Positions 5,174-21,688 are shown, counted from the stretch's first letter. The stretch is 64,000 nt of DNA from an uncultured Acidobacteriota bacterium (GCA_963770895.1 CAVYRF010000002.1:960001-1024000), one strand, 5' to 3'. Numbers and translations are program-made. The notes: generated from the letters alone by a model not told the origin.

Positions 5174-6155
5174 CGTCCTCCCCCACGGATTTTCTGGGGG
5201 CGAGCGCCGCTCCCAGAAACAACGCTTCCAGGCTGAGCCCCAGCGCCAGCTTGGCGCCCAGCGGCACCGTCGGGTCGGGCGAGATGTTGCCCTCGATCAC
5301 CGCCAGGACCACGAACCACGGCAGGCAGCCGAGCAGCACGTGCAGCGAGTCCCTGCCCGCCTGGCGGATCGCCTCGTTGCGCGGCACGTCGCCGGCCGCG
5401 ACGATGGCTCGCCCGATGCCGAGACCGGCGGCGGCGGCAACCAGGATCAACGTGATCTCCAGCGGCCCATGCGCGGCGGTGAAGGCGAGCAGATCGCCGG
5501 CCAGCGAATAGCGCATGGTCACCCCGACCAGGGCGCCCAGCTGCAGTCCGTTGAGGACCACGATATACAGCGGCACGATGCCGGCCAGCAGGCCGCCGCC
5601 CCAGGCCACCAGGGCGACGCCGAGGTTGTTGGAAGCGATCTTCGACGAGGTGACGGCGGACGGCACCGACGTGGTCAGGGTTTCGGTCCACAGATGGCCG
5701 TCCTCCAGGCCCTGAATTTGCTTGGGCCCCAGCAGGATCTCGCCCAGGCGCGGCTGCGCTCCCGCCAGAGCCAACCCGAACAGGGCGGCGCCGGCGAAGA
5801 TCGTCACCACCACGGCCAGCAGGCCGAGCTGGCGGCGAAACGCGGTGGGAAAGGTGACGCGGGCAAAGTGGATCAGCCCGCGGCGCTTGCCGGTCTGGCG
5901 CGTCAGGCGCAGCGTGCCCGCCAGGGCGAGCGCCGCCAGCTGGCGGGCGACCGCGGTGCCCGGAAAACGGTTGGCCGCCAGCGCGTGGTCGTGGAGCACC
6001 TGGCGATAGTCGAAGGCCAGCTGCTCGACCTCGGCGTAGGTGGGCGCCTGCCGCCCGCCGCGCCGCTGCCGCCGCTCGCCCAGGCGGCGTACCTCGGCGG
6101 CGAAGCGCTCCCAGAGCGGCCGGCGCAGCAGCACGAACCGCGTGTAGTCCATCAT
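5157..6155 (-). CDS. Stage II sporulation protein M (SpoIIM/DUF95) family membrane protein
   Basis: Start MMDYTRFV overlaps the RDD stop; motifs 'IASNNLGVAL', 'LNGLQLGA', 'AHGPLEIT', 'AVIEGNISP'. Confidence 0.88.
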   Translation of the reverse strand: MMDYTRFVLLRRPLWERFAAEVRRLGERRQRRGGRQAPTYAEVEQLAFDYRQVLHDHALAANRFPGTAVARQLAALALAGTLRLTRQTGKRRGLIHFARVTFPTAFRRQLGLLAVVVTIFAGAALFGLALAGAQPRLGEILLGPKQIQGLEDGHLWTETLTTSVPSAVTSSKIASNNLGVALVAWGGGLLAGIVPLYIVVLNGLQLGALVGVTMRYSLAGDLLAFTAAHGPLEITLILVAAAAGLGIGRAIVAAGDVPRNEAIRQAGRDSLHVLLGCLPWFVVLAVIEGNISPDPTVPLGAKLALGLSLEALFLGAALAPRKSVGEDDDERL

Positions 6156-6856
6156 CCCTGCCGCACGTCCAGGGCGCGGCGGAGCGCCGAAACCGGGCCG
6201 CCCGGCGGGTCGTGCAGGTCGCTGTCCTTGACCAGCTGCGGCGCGTCGTGGTGAATGCGTACCAGCAGCTGCCGCGCCATCTCGTCGCGCGCCAGGCTGT
6301 CGACCAGGAAGCGCTCGCGCGCCAGGAACCCTTCGACGACGCTCACTTCCCGCGGTCCCCACCCCGGCGGCACGCGGCTGAGCAGCGGCGGCCTGTCGTC
6401 CTGGACCTCGTGGACCACCAGCGTGCCGGCCAGCCGATCGCCCAGCCGCCGCGCCAGCGGGTCCATGGCGATCAGCGGCACGCCCACCAGGTAGTCGACT
6501 TCGCGCACCAGGTTGCGCGCCAGGAGCGCCCCGGCACCGGGCTCCGCCCCCTCGGCGGTGACCACCCGCAGGCGGAACGCCATCTTGCCCAGGGTGCGGC
6601 CGCCGGTAGCGATCTCCATGCCGGCGAAGTACCCCCATTCGAGGAGGAACATGCCGCCCCCGATCACCGCGACGATCCAGACACCGTGGAACCACGCGGC
6701 GACCGCCGCTCCCAGCAGCGCCCAGAGCACCGCCAGGACCCCGACGCAGCAGTAGTCGATCAGCGCCGCCAGGCAGCGGCCGCCCAGGCCGGCCACCGGC
6801 AGGTCCAGGCGGATGTTGTCCAGCGCAAGGATGCTCTCGCGCTCAAGCTCAGCCAA
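6152..6856 (-). CDS. RDD family protein
   Basis: 'AGLGGRCLAALID', 'GGRTLGKMAFRLRVV', 'RRLGDRLAGTLVV'. Confidence 0.92.
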   Translation of the reverse strand: MAELERESILALDNIRLDLPVAGLGGRCLAALIDYCCVGVLAVLWALLGAAVAAWFHGVWIVAVIGGGMFLLEWGYFAGMEIATGGRTLGKMAFRLRVVTAEGAEPGAGALLARNLVREVDYLVGVPLIAMDPLARRLGDRLAGTLVVHEVQDDRPPLLSRVPPGWGPREVSVVEGFLARERFLVDSLARDEMARQLLVRIHHDAPQLVKDSDLHDPPGGPVSALRRALDVRQG

Positions 6857-6942
6857 CGGTTCCTTTCCGCGCCGGTCAGCGGACGCTTCAGGTGTGGCCC
6901 ACGGCCCAACCGGAATACCGCTATTCTGTCATGTGCCGGTCT

Positions 6943-12960: not shown

Positions 12961-14109
12961 ATGCATATGCGCACCACGGCTGTCTGCATCTCAGCGTTCC
13001 TTGGGTTGTCCGTAGGAGCCCTTTCGCAGGCGCCGGTGGCGCAGAGTGCGGGTTACGCGAAGATCCGCTTGATCAGGGTTGGTGCGCCGCCGCTCGACAA
13101 GGCGGAGACGACGCAGTTTCTGGCGGCGAATGCGAAGGGCCATCCTTTGCTGTTGCGGGGGGATACGTTCGAAGTGTTCAGCCAGGGCGCGGATGGGGAA
13201 TTCGATCACCGCCATGGCGTGCTGGCCTGCGATCACTTCGATGCCCCGGCGTATGCCGCGGCAATGGACCCGGTGAGCCAGACCTGGGTGGTGGGGTCGA
13301 TGCAGGAGGTGGCGCTGTGCGACTTCTCGCGGCAGGAGCGCCCGCAGGGACTGCACTGGACGGTGTCGTCGCTGGCTTATGGGGCGTCGGGTCCGTTGGT
13401 GGGGGTCACATCGCTGGGTCCTCGGCCGGACGCCGCGGCGGATCGCTTCCAGAAGACCATACCGCGGGTGTTCGGCATCACGGACGGACGCTGGCAGCCG
13501 ATTGCCTGGGCGCCCGTCGAGCGGCTCAAGGAATTACCGCCCAACCCCATCGAGATCCTGCTGCAGGGCAAAGCCAGCAGCGACGCCCTGCTTTGCTCCG
13601 GGCCGAAGAGCGCCTTGTGGACCGCCGCCTGGAACAGCTACCGCCTGCAGAAGCTCTCCTCTTCCGCAAAACCCGATCGCGAGATCGTGGTCGGCACCGG
13701 CGAGGTGGAATGGCAGAAGCTCGATGCCAAGGAGCAGGCGCAGGAGGCGCGCGTCAGCGCGGCGCAGGGAGCCAACGGCGCCCTGCCGCCCTCCGCGGCG
13801 GGCGTGCCCCGCGGCGTCGTGCGGGCGCTGGTGTGCAGCCGGGACGGAGATCTCTACCTGGTGGTGTCGACTTCCGAAGGGCTGGCCCTCGATCGCTTCA
13901 ATCCCTCGCAGAACCTGCTGGAGCGGGTGATGCTCGAGGGGGCGACGGTCTCATCCGGCCCGATGACGGCGGTGCTGACCGGCGACCAGCTCTGGCTGGG
14001 CGGCCGGCTGGCAGCCGACGGACTGTGGCGAATTCCGACGGAAACCCTCGCCAACGCCCACTGGAAGCCCGTCAAGAACGCCTTTGCAGACGGCAAGCCC
14101 CTGAGCTGA
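12961..14109 (+). CDS. Exported hypothetical protein, probable beta-propeller
   Basis: Signal peptide 'MRTTAVCISAFLGLSVGALSQA'; repeated blade-like strands ('AAAMDPVSQTWVVG', 'SSLAYGASGPLVG', 'ALVCSRDGDLYLVV', 'AVLTGDQLWLG'). Fold is inferred. Confidence 0.7.
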   Translation: MHMRTTAVCISAFLGLSVGALSQAPVAQSAGYAKIRLIRVGAPPLDKAETTQFLAANAKGHPLLLRGDTFEVFSQGADGEFDHRHGVLACDHFDAPAYAAAMDPVSQTWVVGSMQEVALCDFSRQERPQGLHWTVSSLAYGASGPLVGVTSLGPRPDAAADRFQKTIPRVFGITDGRWQPIAWAPVERLKELPPNPIEILLQGKASSDALLCSGPKSALWTAAWNSYRLQKLSSSAKPDREIVVGTGEVEWQKLDAKEQAQEARVSAAQGANGALPPSAAGVPRGVVRALVCSRDGDLYLVVSTSEGLALDRFNPSQNLLERVMLEGATVSSGPMTAVLTGDQLWLGGRLAADGLWRIPTETLANAHWKPVKNAFADGKPLS

Positions 14110-14218: not shown

Positions 14219-16036
14219 TCAGGCGGGATTGCGGCGGAGCAGGACGACGGTCTGGTCGTCGCCTTGGGGGAGGCCGGCGGAGAAGGCGGCGGTGGCGGCT
14301 TGGATGGCGTCCAGGATGTGTTGCAGGGGGCGGTCGCTGTGCTCTTGCAGCACGGCGAGCAGGCGCGCGGTGCCGAACTCTTCTTCGGCGGCGGATTCGG
14401 CTTCGGTGATGCCGTCGCTGTAGATGCACAGCAGGTCGCCGGGCTGCAGGTCGACGGCGCGGGTGGTGAAGCGGCTGCCGGGCAGGACGCCGATGGGCAG
14501 GCCGGTGGAGCCCAGCTGTTCGTGCCCGCCGCTCTCCGCCGCTCCCGCTCCCGCCCCCGCTCCGGCGCCGTCACCCTGGCCGGCTCCAGGCCCGGCGGCG
14601 GGGTGGCGGTGCAGCAGCAGGGCGGGGTTGTGGCCGGCGTTGAGGTAGGTCAGCGAGCCGCTTGCGGGGTCCAGGTCGGCCAGCAGCAGGGTGATGAACT
14701 TGTTGGAGGCGCTCGATTCCAGGACGTGGCGGTTGAGGCGTTCGAAGAGCTCGGGGCCGAAGCCGGCCTGGTCGAGCAGCAGGTGGAGCGCCGAATGCAG
14801 GGTGGACACCATCAGTGCGGCGGGCATGCCCTTGCCGGAAACGTCTCCCACCACCAGGCCGACGCGGCCGTTCTGGCGCACGAAGAGGTCGTAGTAGTCG
14901 CCGCCGATCTGGCGCGCGGGGCGGTTCCAGCCGAGCAGCTCGTAACCGGCGACCTGCGGCGCTTCGCGCGGCAGGATGCGGCGCTGGATGTCGGCGGCAA
15001 GGTGCATCTCGCGCTCGAGGCGCTCCTGCTCCAGGGCCTGCAGGTGGAGGCGGGCATTTTCCAGCGCGATGGCGGCCTGGTTGGCAAACAGACCCAGGGT
15101 GCGCAGGTCGGAGGACGGGAAGGGGCCGACGCCGCGGCGGCTCTCCTTGTCCCCCACCGCCAGCAGGCCGCGCGGGCTGCCTTCGATGTCGATCGGCACG
15201 CCCATCAGGTAGCGGGCGCCGGGCAGCAGCTCGGCCGGAGCGGCACCGCTGCCGGCAAGGAACAGCAGCAGCTCGGTATTGGCGCTGTCGAACCAGGGCG
15301 CGGCGTCGCCGCCGAAGGTGCGCTGCAGGCGATAGCGGCCGTTTTCGACGATGTACAGGGCGCCGCGCCGCGCGTCGAGCAGCGACACGGCGCGCAGCAG
15401 GATCTCTTCGCTGAGCTTTTCCAGGTCCAGGGTGGCGGCGACCGCCAGGCCCACGTCGTAGAGCGATTCCAGCTCGACGACGCGGTAGTTGACCTGGAAC
15501 TGCTGGTCCTTCAGCTCCTGGCGCAACCGCATCACCTTGAGCGCCGATCCCAGCAGCGCCGCGACGGCGAGCGGCAGCGGCGTCGCGCCGTCGTCAGCCC
15601 CGGCCGCCGCCGCGCCGGCCGCGGCCCCGGCGCCGTCCAGCGCGTGCTGCGGGGCATACAGCAGGCCCCCGGGAAGGTGCAGCAGCACGTCGGCCGGATC
15701 GGCCGCCGCCGGGTCGAGCACCTTCGGCAGCGCCCGCCGCTGATCGCCGGCGGAGGTCAGCGGCGGCGGCGAAGCCGGCGCCGCGGCATGCGACGCCGGG
15801 GTCAGCGGGATCAGCGGGGTCACCAGCTCCAGCTGGTGGCGGCCTTCCCGTTCTACGTAGAGGGCGGCGCAGGAGGCGCCGTTGGCGTCGCGCCAGAACG
15901 CCAGCAGGCGCTCGACCACGGCCCGCTCGCCCAGCTCGTCCTGCGACAGCACCAGCAGCTCGCGCCAGGTGTCCGGCGCCAGCCACGCTCCCGGCGAAGC
16001 GGCCACCGCGGCCGCCTCAAGCCGAGAGCCCGGCAA
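14219..16036 (-). CDS. GAF + SpoIIE/PP2C serine phosphatase (RsbU-like)
   Basis: PP2C motifs 'IGGDYYD', 'VGDVSGKGMPAALM', 'YLNAGHNP', 'YSDGITEA', 'GDDQTVV'; GAF ending 'FANQAAIALENARL'. Confidence 0.93.
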   Translation of the reverse strand: MPGSRLEAAAVAASPGAWLAPDTWRELLVLSQDELGERAVVERLLAFWRDANGASCAALYVEREGRHQLELVTPLIPLTPASHAAAPASPPPLTSAGDQRRALPKVLDPAAADPADVLLHLPGGLLYAPQHALDGAGAAAGAAAAGADDGATPLPLAVAALLGSALKVMRLRQELKDQQFQVNYRVVELESLYDVGLAVAATLDLEKLSEEILLRAVSLLDARRGALYIVENGRYRLQRTFGGDAAPWFDSANTELLLFLAGSGAAPAELLPGARYLMGVPIDIEGSPRGLLAVGDKESRRGVGPFPSSDLRTLGLFANQAAIALENARLHLQALEQERLEREMHLAADIQRRILPREAPQVAGYELLGWNRPARQIGGDYYDLFVRQNGRVGLVVGDVSGKGMPAALMVSTLHSALHLLLDQAGFGPELFERLNRHVLESSASNKFITLLLADLDPASGSLTYLNAGHNPALLLHRHPAAGPGAGQGDGAGAGAGAGAAESGGHEQLGSTGLPIGVLPGSRFTTRAVDLQPGDLLCIYSDGITEAESAAEEEFGTARLLAVLQEHSDRPLQHILDAIQAATAAFSAGLPQGDDQTVVLLRRNPA

Positions 16037-16385
16037 TCGCGCTCTCCTCGCTGGCGAAGATGGGCGCGTACTGCGCGAGACCCATGATGTGGAAGGTCTT
16101 TTCGATGGTGGCGGTCAGGCAGCAGAAGCCCAGCTTGCCTTCGATCTCGATCATCTTTTCGATGATCTCGATCAGGATGGAAATGCCGATGGAGTTGACG
16201 ATCTTGGTGCCCGCGAGGTTGAGCAGCAGGACCTTGAAGCCCTCATCGATCAACTTGTAGGCGGCGCGCGCGATCTCTTCGCCGCCCTGGTTGTTGATGT
16301 AACCCTCGGTATAGATCACCGCCAGGCCGGCGCGGCGGTCCACGGTCAGATTCAGGCTTTCGGTCATCGACATCCCCGCTTTCAA
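16017..16385 (-). CDS. STAS-domain anti-sigma-factor antagonist (RsbV-like)
   Basis: About 120 aa STAS fold with 'LLNLAGTKIVNSIGISILI' (phospho-acceptor Ser) and 'KTFHIMGL'. Confidence 0.92.
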   Translation of the reverse strand: MKAGMSMTESLNLTVDRRAGLAVIYTEGYINNQGGEEIARAAYKLIDEGFKVLLLNLAGTKIVNSIGISILIEIIEKMIEIEGKLGFCCLTATIEKTFHIMGLAQYAPIFASEESAIAGLSA

Positions 16386-16819
16386 CGCAGCTTGCTCATC
16401 ACGACGATCGTGCCTTCGGCTCCGGAATGGATCTCCACTTCGTCCATCAGGCCGCGGATGATCTTGAGGCCCCAGCCCCGCTTGCGGCTGGCCTTCAGCT
16501 TATCCTCGATACGGGGTTCGGCCATATGCGTGGACTCGAAGCCGACTCCGGTATCCCGCACCGTGATGCGCAACTTTTCGGGAAGGTCTTTGTCGCCGAG
16601 GACCTGGAAGGTTACGTAGACTTCCCGCTCGCGCGCGTGGCTGTGTTCGATCGCGTTGATGCAGGCCTCAACCACCGCCATCTGCACCTCGCCGATCCGA
16701 TCGGGGCTCATCCGCATCGATTCGGCGACAGCAGTCGCCGTCTTGCCCGCCTCGATCTCGATCTCGGGCACCATCGGCAGCGCCAGCGTGACCTCCCTCA
16801 GCACAACGTCACCAGCCAT
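16382..16819 (-). CDS. Anti-sigma-factor Ser kinase (RsbW-like, HATPase_c_2)
   Basis: Start MAGDVVLREV; 'MAVVEACINAIEH', 'VRDTGVGF', 'RGWGLKIIRGLMDEV'. Confidence 0.93.
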   Translation of the reverse strand: MAGDVVLREVTLALPMVPEIEIEAGKTATAVAESMRMSPDRIGEVQMAVVEACINAIEHSHAREREVYVTFQVLGDKDLPEKLRITVRDTGVGFESTHMAEPRIEDKLKASRKRGWGLKIIRGLMDEVEIHSGAEGTIVVMSKLR

Positions 16820-16848
16820 GTCCGTGCAGTAGCGAGTGAGAATCGCCT

Positions 16849-17007
16849 TCAGAAGGACAGGTAGAGCTGCAGAGCGTAGACCACGATGGGATGCACCAGT
16901 CCGTGTGCCAGCAGCCAGCCGAAGCTGGTCAAGGTTGCAGCGGACAGTAGCACCTTCACCGGCACCTGGGGAACGGCGGTCACGTACCTGCGGACCAGAT
17001 CGGGCAT
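16849..17007 (-). CDS. Small hydrophobic membrane peptide (52 aa)
   Basis: GAGGAG 7 nt before ATG at 17007; MPDLVRRYVTAVPQVPVKVLLSAATLTSFGWLLAHGLVHPIVVYALQLYLSF; lies between a sigma-54 promoter and rsbW. Confidence 0.7.
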   Translation of the reverse strand: MPDLVRRYVTAVPQVPVKVLLSAATLTSFGWLLAHGLVHPIVVYALQLYLSF

Positions 17008-17040
17008 TCGAGTTCTCCTCATCCTCGTCACCCTCCTGTC

Positions 17041-17055
17041 GCAAGCCCCCTGCCA
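17041..17055 (-). promoter_or_regulatory. Sigma-54 (-24/-12) promoter
   Basis: Minus strand TGGCAGGGGGCTTGC (GG-N10-GC; consensus TGGCAC-N5-TTGC), about 35 nt upstream of the small-peptide start. Confidence 0.8.
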
Positions 17056-17095
17056 GATCCGCCGCACCGCCGCCCCCCTCCGGCAAGCCATTTGT

Positions 17096-17108
17096 TATCA
17101 GCGCTTTG
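17096..17108 (+). promoter_or_regulatory. IHF binding site
   Basis: TATCAGCGCTTTG matches WATCARNNNNTTR and lies between the UAS repeats and the sigma-54 promoter. Confidence 0.65.
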
Positions 17109-17128
17109 ACACGCAATCCCCAGCCATC

Positions 17129-17250
17129 TCGACAGATTGTCCCAGGCAGCCGCGCGACAAAATGACCCAAGTTGCCCCGCCCCCCATACGCAGCCGCGGA
17201 TGGAGGCGTCCATTCAGCCCCTGAAAATGGCATGTGGGTCAAAATGTCCC
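17129..17250. promoter_or_regulatory. Three palindromic bEBP upstream activating sequences (GGGACA-N3-TGTCCC-like)
   Basis: tcgaca-gat-tgtccc (17129-17143), gcgaca-aaa-tgaccc (17154-17168), gggtca-aaa-tgtccc (17236-17250). Confidence 0.7.
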
Positions 17251-17289
17251 CGATTGCACCAGGAAGTCGCAGATGATTGAAGCGGACGT

Positions 17290-18762
17290 TCAAAAACCCT
17301 TGCGCTGGAGGGTTTTGCGATCGACGCCCAGGATCTTGGCGGCCTCGCTCTTGTTGCCGCCGGTCAGTTTGAGCACGCGGCTGATGTGGCGGCGTTCCAT
17401 GGCGCCCATGTCGAGCGGCTCCGGCGCCTGCTGCAACGGGGTGCCTAGCAGCGACCGGATGAGGTCGGCGTCGATCTCGCGGTCGGCCAGCGACACCGCG
17501 CCCTCCACCAGGTTTTGCAGCTCGCGCACGTTGCCGGGGAAGTCGTGGGCGATCAGCAGAGCCAGCGCTTCGGGGCGCAGCTGCGGCACCGGAATGCCCT
17601 CCCGCCGGCAGAACTCCTCGACGAAGGTGCGCACGAAGTGCGGGATGTCCTGCCGCCGCTCGCGCAGCGCCGGCAGCTCCAGCTCGACGCCCTTCAACCG
17701 GTAGTAGAGGTCTTCGCGAAACCGCCCCTCGCGCACCAGCGCTTCGATGTCCTGGTGGGTGGCGGCGACCAGCCGCACGTCCACCGGGATCGGCCGCCGC
17801 CCGCCGAGCCGCACCACCTCCCGCTCCTGCAGGGCGCGCAGGAGCTTGACCTGCAGCGAGGTCTGCATGTCGCCGATCTCGTCGAGCAGCAGGGTGCCAT
17901 GGTCCGCCAGCTCGAACTTGCCCGGCCGCGCCTGCACGCCGGTCGCCACCCCGCCCTCGATGCCGAACAGCTCGCTTTCCAGGAGCGATTCCGGCAGCGC
18001 CGCGCAGTTGACTGCGATCAGCGCCCCTTCGCGCCGCGAACGCAGGTGCAGGAGCTTGGCGATCAGCTCCTTGCCGGTGCCGCTTTCGCCCCGCACCAGG
18101 ACGTTGACGCTGCGCGGCGCCACCCGCTCGACGACCTCCAGCACGCGCCGCATCGGCGGCGCCGAAGCGACGATGCGCCGCCCCGCCACCTCGTCGGCCA
18201 GGAACCCTTTGAGCGTCTTGTTCTCTTCTTCGAGGCGCTCGCGCTGCGCCTCCAGCCGCTCGACCTGGCGCGCGGCGTCCAGGGCGACGCCTGCCAGCGC
18301 CGCCACCGAATCCAGGAACCGGCGGTCGTCGGCGGTGAACGCGGCGTCGGCGTCGCCGCGCACCTCCTTGTCGAGCACCGCGAGGTACCCCAGGTAGACG
18401 CCGCGGTAGGCCAGCGGCGTCGCCACCAGGTGCTGGTAGGCCCGCCCGGCCAGCGCTCCCGCGGCGCGCGCCAGCTGCCGCCCTTCGCTGAGCAGCTCGC
18501 GCCACAGCGGCGCCCCGAGCAGCGTCGCGCCGTCCGGCGTGGCGTCGGTCCAGCCGACCACCGCCACCCCGCGCGCGCCGCCGTAGCCGTCGCGCGTCAC
18601 CGCCACCGCCGCCGCCGGATCGAGCACCGCGCAGACGCGGCCCAGCAGCTCTTCGACCAGCTCCTGCTCGGCGCGCTGCGAGTGCAGGGCCAGGGCGAGG
18701 TCGTACAGCGTCTCCAGCTGGAGGATGCGCCGCTTTTCGATCAGGCTGACTTCGCTGCGCAC
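17290..18762 (-). CDS. GAF-domain sigma-54 enhancer-binding protein (GAF-AAA+-Fis HTH)
   Basis: 'VLVRGESGTGKEL', 'VNCAALPESLLESELFG', GVATGV in place of GAFTGA, 'LLDEIGDM', 'FREDLYYRL', 'FPGNVRELQN', HTH 'GNKSEAAKILGVDRKTL'. Start uncertain (GTG at 18762 chosen). Confidence 0.93.
   Translation of the reverse strand: MRSEVSLIEKRRILQLETLYDLALALHSQRAEQELVEELLGRVCAVLDPAAAVAVTRDGYGGARGVAVVGWTDATPDGATLLGAPLWRELLSEGRQLARAAGALAGRAYQHLVATPLAYRGVYLGYLAVLDKEVRGDADAAFTADDRRFLDSVAALAGVALDAARQVERLEAQRERLEEENKTLKGFLADEVAGRRIVASAPPMRRVLEVVERVAPRSVNVLVRGESGTGKELIAKLLHLRSRREGALIAVNCAALPESLLESELFGIEGGVATGVQARPGKFELADHGTLLLDEIGDMQTSLQVKLLRALQEREVVRLGGRRPIPVDVRLVAATHQDIEALVREGRFREDLYYRLKGVELELPALRERRQDIPHFVRTFVEEFCRREGIPVPQLRPEALALLIAHDFPGNVRELQNLVEGAVSLADREIDADLIRSLLGTPLQQAPEPLDMGAMERRHISRVLKLTGGNKSEAAKILGVDRKTLQRKGF

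Positions 18763-18829: not shown

Positions 18830-21688
<2,859 letters not shown>

Follow-up and report, generated by a model that had tools for sequence, protein, structure and literature searches.

The DNA analysed here, called the window, is a 64,000-nt stretch from an uncultured Acidobacteriota bacterium (GCA_963770895.1, CAVYRF010000002.1:960001-1024000). This report concerns one group of genes in it, all on the minus strand between positions 14219 and 18894, in which a putative sigma-54 activator precedes the parts of a partner switch. Open reading frame (ORF), Pfam and pattern scans recovered the layout that a preliminary description had read from the sequence, namely an activator gene, a sigma-54 promoter, a gene for a small hydrophobic protein and genes resembling rsbW, rsbV and rsbU, in this order and with the same coordinates. 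The spacer of 283 nt from the activator stop to the ATG of the small protein holds three upstream activating sequence (UAS) sites, a site resembling that of integration host factor (IHF) and the promoter. The operon ends with the phosphatase gene. A sigma-70 promoter scan found none, no Rfam family reached its gathering score in the whole window, and a terminator-like site at 14152-14139 (minus strand) is at chance level, with one such site vs 1.9 expected.

The sigma-54 enhancer-binding protein (17290-18762, minus strand) combines a GAF sensor, an AAA+ core and a Fis-type helix-turn-helix (HTH). Its core matches the Pfam families Sigma54_activat (PF00158, 1.1e-60, 204.6 bits vs a cutoff of 20.2) and AAA_lid_14, and its C-terminus matches HTH_8 (3.6e-10); the GAF matches are weak and below cutoff (GAF_2, 7e-5). 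The longest ORF opens at 18894, and the GTG at 18762 is the first start past the stop of uvrA at 18830. Near residue 260 of the 534-aa ORF, the sigma-54-contact loop ELFGIEGGVATGV carries GVATGV in place of GAFTGA, and this replacement is invariant in 41/41 aligned orthologues. Of the features expected of a bacterial enhancer-binding protein (bEBP), the AAA+ domain, the HTH with upstream sites, and the promoter together with rpoN, encoded in the same genome, are all present, and the GAFTGA loop is absent. Among the 20 bEBP-like domains of this genome, 17 keep the usual motif G[AS][FY]T[GD]A and only two have the GVATGV loop. The second of these belongs to a 658-aa activator (G000:C1:1565072-1567048; L083:5073-7049) whose N-terminus looks FHA-like by eye, and whose gene directly follows one that, also by eye, is Ser/Thr-kinase-like. 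Full-text literature searches found a single report of the variant, in passages of PMC4641369, for DVUA0100 of Desulfovibrio vulgaris, which is predicted to act at sigma-54 promoters. At the end of the activator gene (window 17290-17320, minus strand), the last codons (...KTLQRKGF, stop) make up a hairpin, AAACCCT-N8-AGGGTTT, and the TTTT after it overlaps the stop codon. Such a structure could act as a terminator and isolate the operon promoter; our terminator scan did not call it under its T-run rule.

Pattern and position weight matrix (PWM) scans place UAS site 1 (GGGACATTTTGACCC, 17236-17250) in a distal position class and site 2 (GGGTCATTTTGTCGC, 17154-17168) in a proximal one; site 3 (GGGACAATCTGTCGA, 17129-17143) is weaker. 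The three sites had been described as palindromes GGGACA-N3-TGTCCC. Their positions hold, and none fits this sequence perfectly, the mismatches being one, two and two, respectively. Between the UAS sites and the promoter lies the IHF-like site TATCAGCGCTTTG (17096-17108, plus strand), with one mismatch to WATCAANNNNTTR; the genome has four HU/IHF-family genes, one of them above the IHF-beta equivalog cutoff (121.9 vs 115 bits). The -24/-12 promoter TGGCAGGGGGCTTGC (17041-17055, minus strand), an element written TGGCAG-N5-TTGC, is the sole TGGCA-N6-TTGC in the window, and from it we infer a transcription start near 17030.

The operon opens with the gene of the hydrophobic protein (16849-17007, minus strand). 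Its ATG at 17007 follows a ribosome-binding site GAGGAG (17020-17015) by 7 nt, and the 52-aa product, MPDLV...HPIVVYALQLYLSF, ends at the stop at 16849. An RsbW/SpoIIAB-like serine kinase of the GHKL fold (16382-16822, HATPase_c_2 6.6e-25), a single-domain, RsbV-like STAS protein (16017-16367, Pfam STAS 1.1e-10) and an RsbU-like GAF-PP2C phosphatase of the SpoIIE family (14219-16036, SpoIIE 1.1e-45, GAF_3 1.7e-10; GTG at 16006 as an alternative start) follow on the same strand.

Cis-elements, small protein and gene order among relatives

Within the window the promoter match alone is not above chance (0.59 expected), and the palindrome pattern was fitted post hoc to its three sites (four matches vs 0.16 expected), so the test had to be comparative. 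A kinase-query scan of relatives gave 80 loci. The titles of L002-L055 name Thermoanaerobaculia, Acidobacteriota, Holophagales and 'Multivorans' metagenome-assembled genomes, and L018 is a 1-kb contig titled Bipolaricaulota; leaving out L009, L010 and L018, which have too little upstream DNA, 51 loci were assessable. In 48 of them the promoter TGGCA-N6-TTGC stands at the same place, 218-521 nt 5' of the kinase gene, and in the remaining three (L015-L017) one-base variants of the -12 element occupy the same position. The promoter assigned in the preliminary description is thereby borne out.

The upstream sites were surveyed in 49 promoter-anchored regions with the loose pattern G-CA-N3-TG-C, which gave 116 matches. 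Conservation extends to the outer positions that this pattern leaves free, with G in 102 and C in 109 of the 116 sites; distances from the promoter concentrate at -220 to -181 (61 sites) and at -120 to -81 (49 sites), with six elsewhere. The resulting family consensus agrees with the palindrome first named, GGGACA-N3-TGTCCC, with a G/C wobble at positions 2 and 14, that is, G[G/C]GACA-N3-TGTC[C/G]C. The activator presumably binds these 15-bp sites. In loci of deep families of the class (L093-L102 and L062), the spacer between the activator and the small ORF carries inverted repeats of the TGCAAC/TGCATC type with the gene order kept, a change of motif that fits co-evolution of the HTH and its site. 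The IHF-like site, at a threshold of at most one mismatch, recurs in 17/49 upstream regions, and all 18 matches fall in one 20-nt bin, in line with its original assignment.

A PWM built on the relatives only, with the window excluded, scores window sites 1, 2 and 3 at 20.4, 19.5 and 13.3 bits. Applied to the window's own 8.16-Mb genome, it gives 137 matches of at least 11 bits and a single cluster (at least two within 160 bp), located here; of the 30 top-scoring single sites, only two have a sigma-54-like promoter within 350 bp, both in this locus. The activator therefore appears, as far as a matrix scan can tell, to serve one promoter only, and the regulon check proposed with the preliminary description agrees with its term 'self-contained'. 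Isolated palindrome copies with no sigma-54-like promoter within 350 bp occur at C2:5354380 (21.7 bits), C1:560129 (16.3 bits) and C1:562196 (18.2 bits), the latter two 2 kb apart, and about one isolated high-scoring site is expected by chance. We considered C2:5354380, the best of them, as a second activator target and rejected it, because it has no promoter close by and chance alone predicts one such site.

In four genomes (L004, L007, L011 and L017) the activator is unlinked, present as a single orthologue on another contig with a GAF region 71-79% identical. The operon keeps its upstream sites in 4/4, and its canonical promoter in three, L017 having one of the one-base -12 variants. In two further loci (L006 and L013), about 1-3 kb of inserted DNA separates activator and operon, with the upstream sites kept.

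The small ORF is found in 51/51 assessable loci, 49 by its tail motif and two by eye with one residue changed, and in most of them its start codon lies 41-57 nt past TGGCA. An alignment of 50 sequences has P40 and L50 invariant and S22, F29, W31, L33, D36, V42, Y44, L46 and L48 at 90% or above. With dN/dS values of 0.31 in the 51-aa group (177 pairs) and 0.23 in the 62-aa group (44 pairs), the peptide is, by this measure, under purifying selection. We rejected a role of the small ORF as leader or attenuator, since its amino-acid conservation and dN/dS speak for a protein. Searching 1.84 billion representatives with the peptide profile gave 71 clusters at E <=1e-3. Nearly all are short proteins (about 51-125 aa) whose C-terminus coincides with the end of the profile; a 672-aa protein matches in part. 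There is no Pfam or NCBIfam family match. In an AlphaFold model (pLDDT 74.8), a short N-terminal helix precedes two others, at 17-34 and 38-51, with a break between these ahead of the invariant proline. Hydropathy in a 19-residue window peaks at 1.5-1.8. The hydropathy and the modelled helix-kink-helix fit a membrane-associated micro-protein. The sequence diverges fast (mean 48%), its C-terminal helix varying between sub-clades, and in 10/10 deep-family loci a different-looking small hydrophobic ORF occupies the same place, ending ...LRLAWTLARVLIQL or ...RVAVRLLLLLLSV. Loss of conservation in the small ORF and the palindromes had been named beforehand as grounds for abandoning the original reading, and both are conserved across relatives.

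The order activator, peptide, kinase, STAS, phosphatase is common to L002-L055 and is kept in 9/10 deep loci; the only conserved neighbours are uvrA (30/42 loci) and pmbA/tldD (28/42). An orthologue of the STAS gene is single-copy in 144/151 genomes of the class and 63/68 genera (141/148 genomes when the unpublished G135, G004 and G104 are left out). Of the seven STAS-negative genomes, five were examined. Four of these (2.0-3.6 Mb, 96-98% complete) also lack, with the same queries, the activator GAF region and the kinase, and in the fifth the whole module is present in diverged form; rpoN is kept in all five. This joint absence with rpoN retained indicates that the module comes and goes as a whole, independently of sigma-54. 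We read it as a dedicated module that has been passed on vertically in nearly all of the class. The predicted cis-circuit and the unity of the module are shown by comparison. The promoter is missing, except in L062, from the distant RsbW relatives of other phyla (L056-L081), so the sigma-54 wiring could not be traced beyond this lineage.

The partner switch and its output

Three proteins of the operon carry the hallmarks of a working partner switch. Across 41 sequences, the kinase boxes (N-box E52/N56/H60, D90-G92-G94 and G116-G118) show little or no variation; among solved structures, SpoIIAB and RsbW come closest to the kinase. The phosphorylatable-serine motif [IL]VNSIGIS (VNSIGIS in the window) is present in 53/53 STAS loci. 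In the phosphatase, the motifs with the metal-binding aspartates are kept, DV[S/T/A]GKG in 49/49 loci and DD[Q/V]T in 46/47. As judged by these boxes and motifs, kinase, STAS protein and phosphatase are competent. Two attributes of the classical switch are missing: the kinase scores below the NCBIfam equivalog cutoffs (RsbW 60.1 vs 145 bits, SpoIIAB 55.8 vs 135 bits), and there is no cognate group-3 sigma. No sigma factor gene lies in the window, and the nearest Sigma70_r2 match is more than 100 kb away. In the genome (8.16 Mb, 94.95% complete) the one Sigma70_r3 match is RpoD, in agreement with the earlier term 'sigma-less', and the 40 Sigma70_r2 matches are RpoD and about 39 of the extracytoplasmic function (ECF) type. 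With the Sigma70_r3 model no SigB/SigF/FliA-type sigma was detected in the genome, which argues that the output of the switch is not a group-3 sigma.

We propose the following mechanism. The activator would act through two position classes of 15-bp sites upstream of a single sigma-54 promoter, with an IHF-type site between the two in the window's sub-clade, and one transcript would encode, in order, the hydrophobic helix-kink-helix protein of about 52 aa, the RsbW-type kinase, the STAS protein and the GAF-PP2C phosphatase. The activator GAF region and the phosphatase GAF share 32% identity over 178 aa, the preceding helix included, and a query with the former against the whole genome returns the latter as its sole other match. 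Taking the two as each other's only clear paralogues, we infer that one intracellular signal acts twice. Through the activator GAF it would license transcription of the operon; through the phosphatase it would lead to dephosphorylation of the STAS protein, which would then be driven onto the kinase. In 41/42 loci the STAS protein ranks first in conservation among the four large proteins (mean 76.7% vs 68.1, 61.1 and 52.6). As the most constrained protein, unphosphorylated STAS would be the species that carries the output, to a partner outside the kinase, STAS and phosphatase genes, for which the co-transcribed peptide is the nearest candidate at the membrane. This model as a whole, a dedicated module in which one signal sets both transcription and STAS dephosphorylation and the output is not a sigma factor, is one we advance tentatively, at slightly less than an even chance.

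Several observations weigh against it. In the reverse search, the phosphatase GAF matches another locus slightly better than the activator (E 5e-4 vs 0.01), and GAF paralogues with 32% identity need not share a ligand. The high conservation of the STAS protein could reflect constraint from kinase and phosphatase alone. Excerpts of the review PMC8256260 give RpoD/sigma-66 of Chlamydia as the reported target of the chlamydial RsbW, which, together with the roughly 39 ECF-type sigma genes here, leaves room for a sigma output. Since the contact loop reads GVATGV and not GAFTGA, the case for sigma-54 activation is carried by the conserved promoter and by the precedent of DVUA0100, itself a prediction in the passages cited above. 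Finally, the scan at one mismatch or fewer does not find the IHF-like site in 24 loci (L032-L055).

Canonical partner-switch operons encode the target beside its anti-factor, as in rsbV-rsbW-sigB and spoIIAA-AB-AC. By this precedent the peptide would stand in the sigma's place: kinase or STAS would bind the 52-aa protein, and STAS dephosphorylation would release or engage it, closing a five-gene circuit. The peptide is the only non-enzyme product, it is encoded first in all 51 assessable and all ten deep loci, it is under the purifying selection described above, and other targets of the activator are not detectable. Its fast divergence and its changing C-terminal helix sit poorly beside a nearly frozen STAS, however, and the gap between the peptide gene and rsbW reaches 130-300 nt in some loci; we regard the peptide as a possible but doubtful target. 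A different kind of closure is offered by operons that encode regulators of their own driver. NifL binds NifA and PspA binds PspF as anti-activators, and partner-switch operons are commonly driven by the factor that they control, such as the sigB operon. Here the GAF-AAA+ protein would be bound by the RsbW-like GHKL protein as its anti-activator, with STAS as anti-anti-activator. The activator would be the driver of this operon, a parallel to the sigB operon, the operon appears to be its only target, and the invariant GVATGV loop might mark a special regulatory surface. Such a circuit would nevertheless have the peptide as its sole output. A complex model of two RsbW-like chains with activator residues 54-534, computed with our own alignments, returned scores of 0.00 and 0.28, the mark being 0.32, which counts neither for nor against binding. 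The unlinking of the activator in four genomes with no loss of the module is neutral, and we think negative feedback of this kind quite improbable.

The kinase might also sequester an ECF sigma or RpoD encoded elsewhere, an idea favoured by the many Sigma70_r2 matches, by anti-sigma F and RsbW as its nearest solved relatives and by the reported chlamydial control of sigma-66, as excerpted in PMC8256260. It is set against region 3 being confined to RpoD, the lack of a sigma gene within 100 kb or among the conserved neighbours uvrA and pmbA/tldD, and the distance of the kinase below both equivalog cutoffs, and this leaves a distant sigma rather unlikely. If only the four large genes were real, and the small ORF and the motifs upstream of it had arisen by chance in a GC-rich spacer, this would account for a promoter match that is not above chance in the window and for a palindrome pattern drawn up post hoc. 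The comparative data already contradict this reading, to the point that we give it almost no credence: the elements recur at fixed positions in some 50 diverged loci, the peptide has a dN/dS of 0.23-0.31, and nearly all of the 71 profile clusters are short proteins that end with the profile.

Apart from the module, the genome holds a second RsbW-like gene with a strong match (G000:C2:2840119-2840484; L084, about 6120-6879). A gene for a STAS protein of 111 aa comes directly after it, and before it lies an ORF of 431 aa whose N-terminus is hydrophobic. The genome-wide Sigma70_r3 search offers this pair no group-3 sigma either; the L084 flanks themselves were not searched.

Relation to known systems

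Full-text literature searches that combined partner switching with sigma-54, with enhancer-binding proteins or with this class found no such module, so the arrangement is, as far as these searches reach, unreported. The preliminary description had called the whole system undescribed; of this, the arrangement stands, and the sigma-less aspect is not new, as excerpts of PMC8256260 already describe partner switches of that kind. Among them are BtrUVW of Bordetella, RbaVW of Rhodobacter and HmpUVW of Nostoc, which share with the module partner-switch parts lacking a cognate sigma. We found no report of a STAS-only system of the Btr, Rba or Hmp type that has a sigma-54 activator of its own, a pair of GAF sensors or a gene for a leader peptide.

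The nearest relative in design is the Syp system of Vibrio fischeri, where, according to parts of PMC4517449 and PMC8256260, one relay activates the sigma-54 regulator SypG and brings about SypE-dependent dephosphorylation of the STAS protein SypA, the product of the first syp gene, whose target is unknown. In both systems a sigma-54 activator and an enhancer drive the operon, and the first gene of the Syp operon is part of a STAS-based phospho-switch. The two-branch form would also be alike, with the signal acting on transcription and on STAS dephosphorylation, and the Syp STAS acts on a non-sigma target. The sensors differ, being one-component GAF domains here and a phosphorelay in Syp. Kinase and phosphatase are separate and lack a REC domain, whereas SypE is an RsbW-REC-PP2C fusion. 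No polysaccharide genes follow in our operon, which is led by the gene of a small hydrophobic protein, and our activator appears to serve one promoter only.

With the Bacillus systems RsbU-RsbV-RsbW-SigB and SpoIIE-SpoIIAA-SpoIIAB-SigF, the module shares the three protein families with their conserved boxes and motifs, and an operon switched on by a dedicated transcription factor. Unlike them, it has no group-3 sigma in its operon or genome, its transcription would depend on sigma-54 and an activator, its phosphatase takes its input through a GAF domain, and its kinase scores under the equivalog cutoffs. Psp (PspF-PspA-PspBC) and NifL-NifA are, like the module, sigma-54 operons that encode their own post-translational regulators, and small membrane proteins are part of Psp; the operon described here encodes no homologue of PspA or NifL. 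The PspA-PspF pair is mentioned in passages of PMC4641369. The same passages describe DVUA0100 of Desulfovibrio vulgaris Hildenborough, also a one-component sigma-54 activator with the GVATGV loop; unlike ours, it has type III secretion genes as its predicted targets.

What makes the module noteworthy is that a core trait of a whole class comes with closed, testable wiring. The targets of SypA, BtrV, RbaV and HmpV have been unknown for years, as excerpts of the review PMC8256260 put it. The present module is an unusually clean case, with one activator, one promoter, four products and no competing SigB-type sigma, so that the choice of target is narrow enough for direct binding tests, and it is conserved in single copy across a class with few cultured members. 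If the peptide does take the sigma's place, control of a small membrane protein would be new among known partner switches: a GAF-sensed signal would lead to sigma-54 transcription and then to post-translational release of a membrane-active micro-protein, as a core trait of a widespread class of soil bacteria. The locus also offers a defined enhancer/promoter pair for Acidobacteriota, and about 40 natural examples of GVATGV, plus one paralogue, beside a conserved sigma-54 promoter bear on how activators contact sigma-54.

Downstream of the module, a 382-aa ORF that matches no Pfam family (12961-14109, plus strand) is convergent on the operon, has a signal-peptide-like start and is present in 2/42 related loci.

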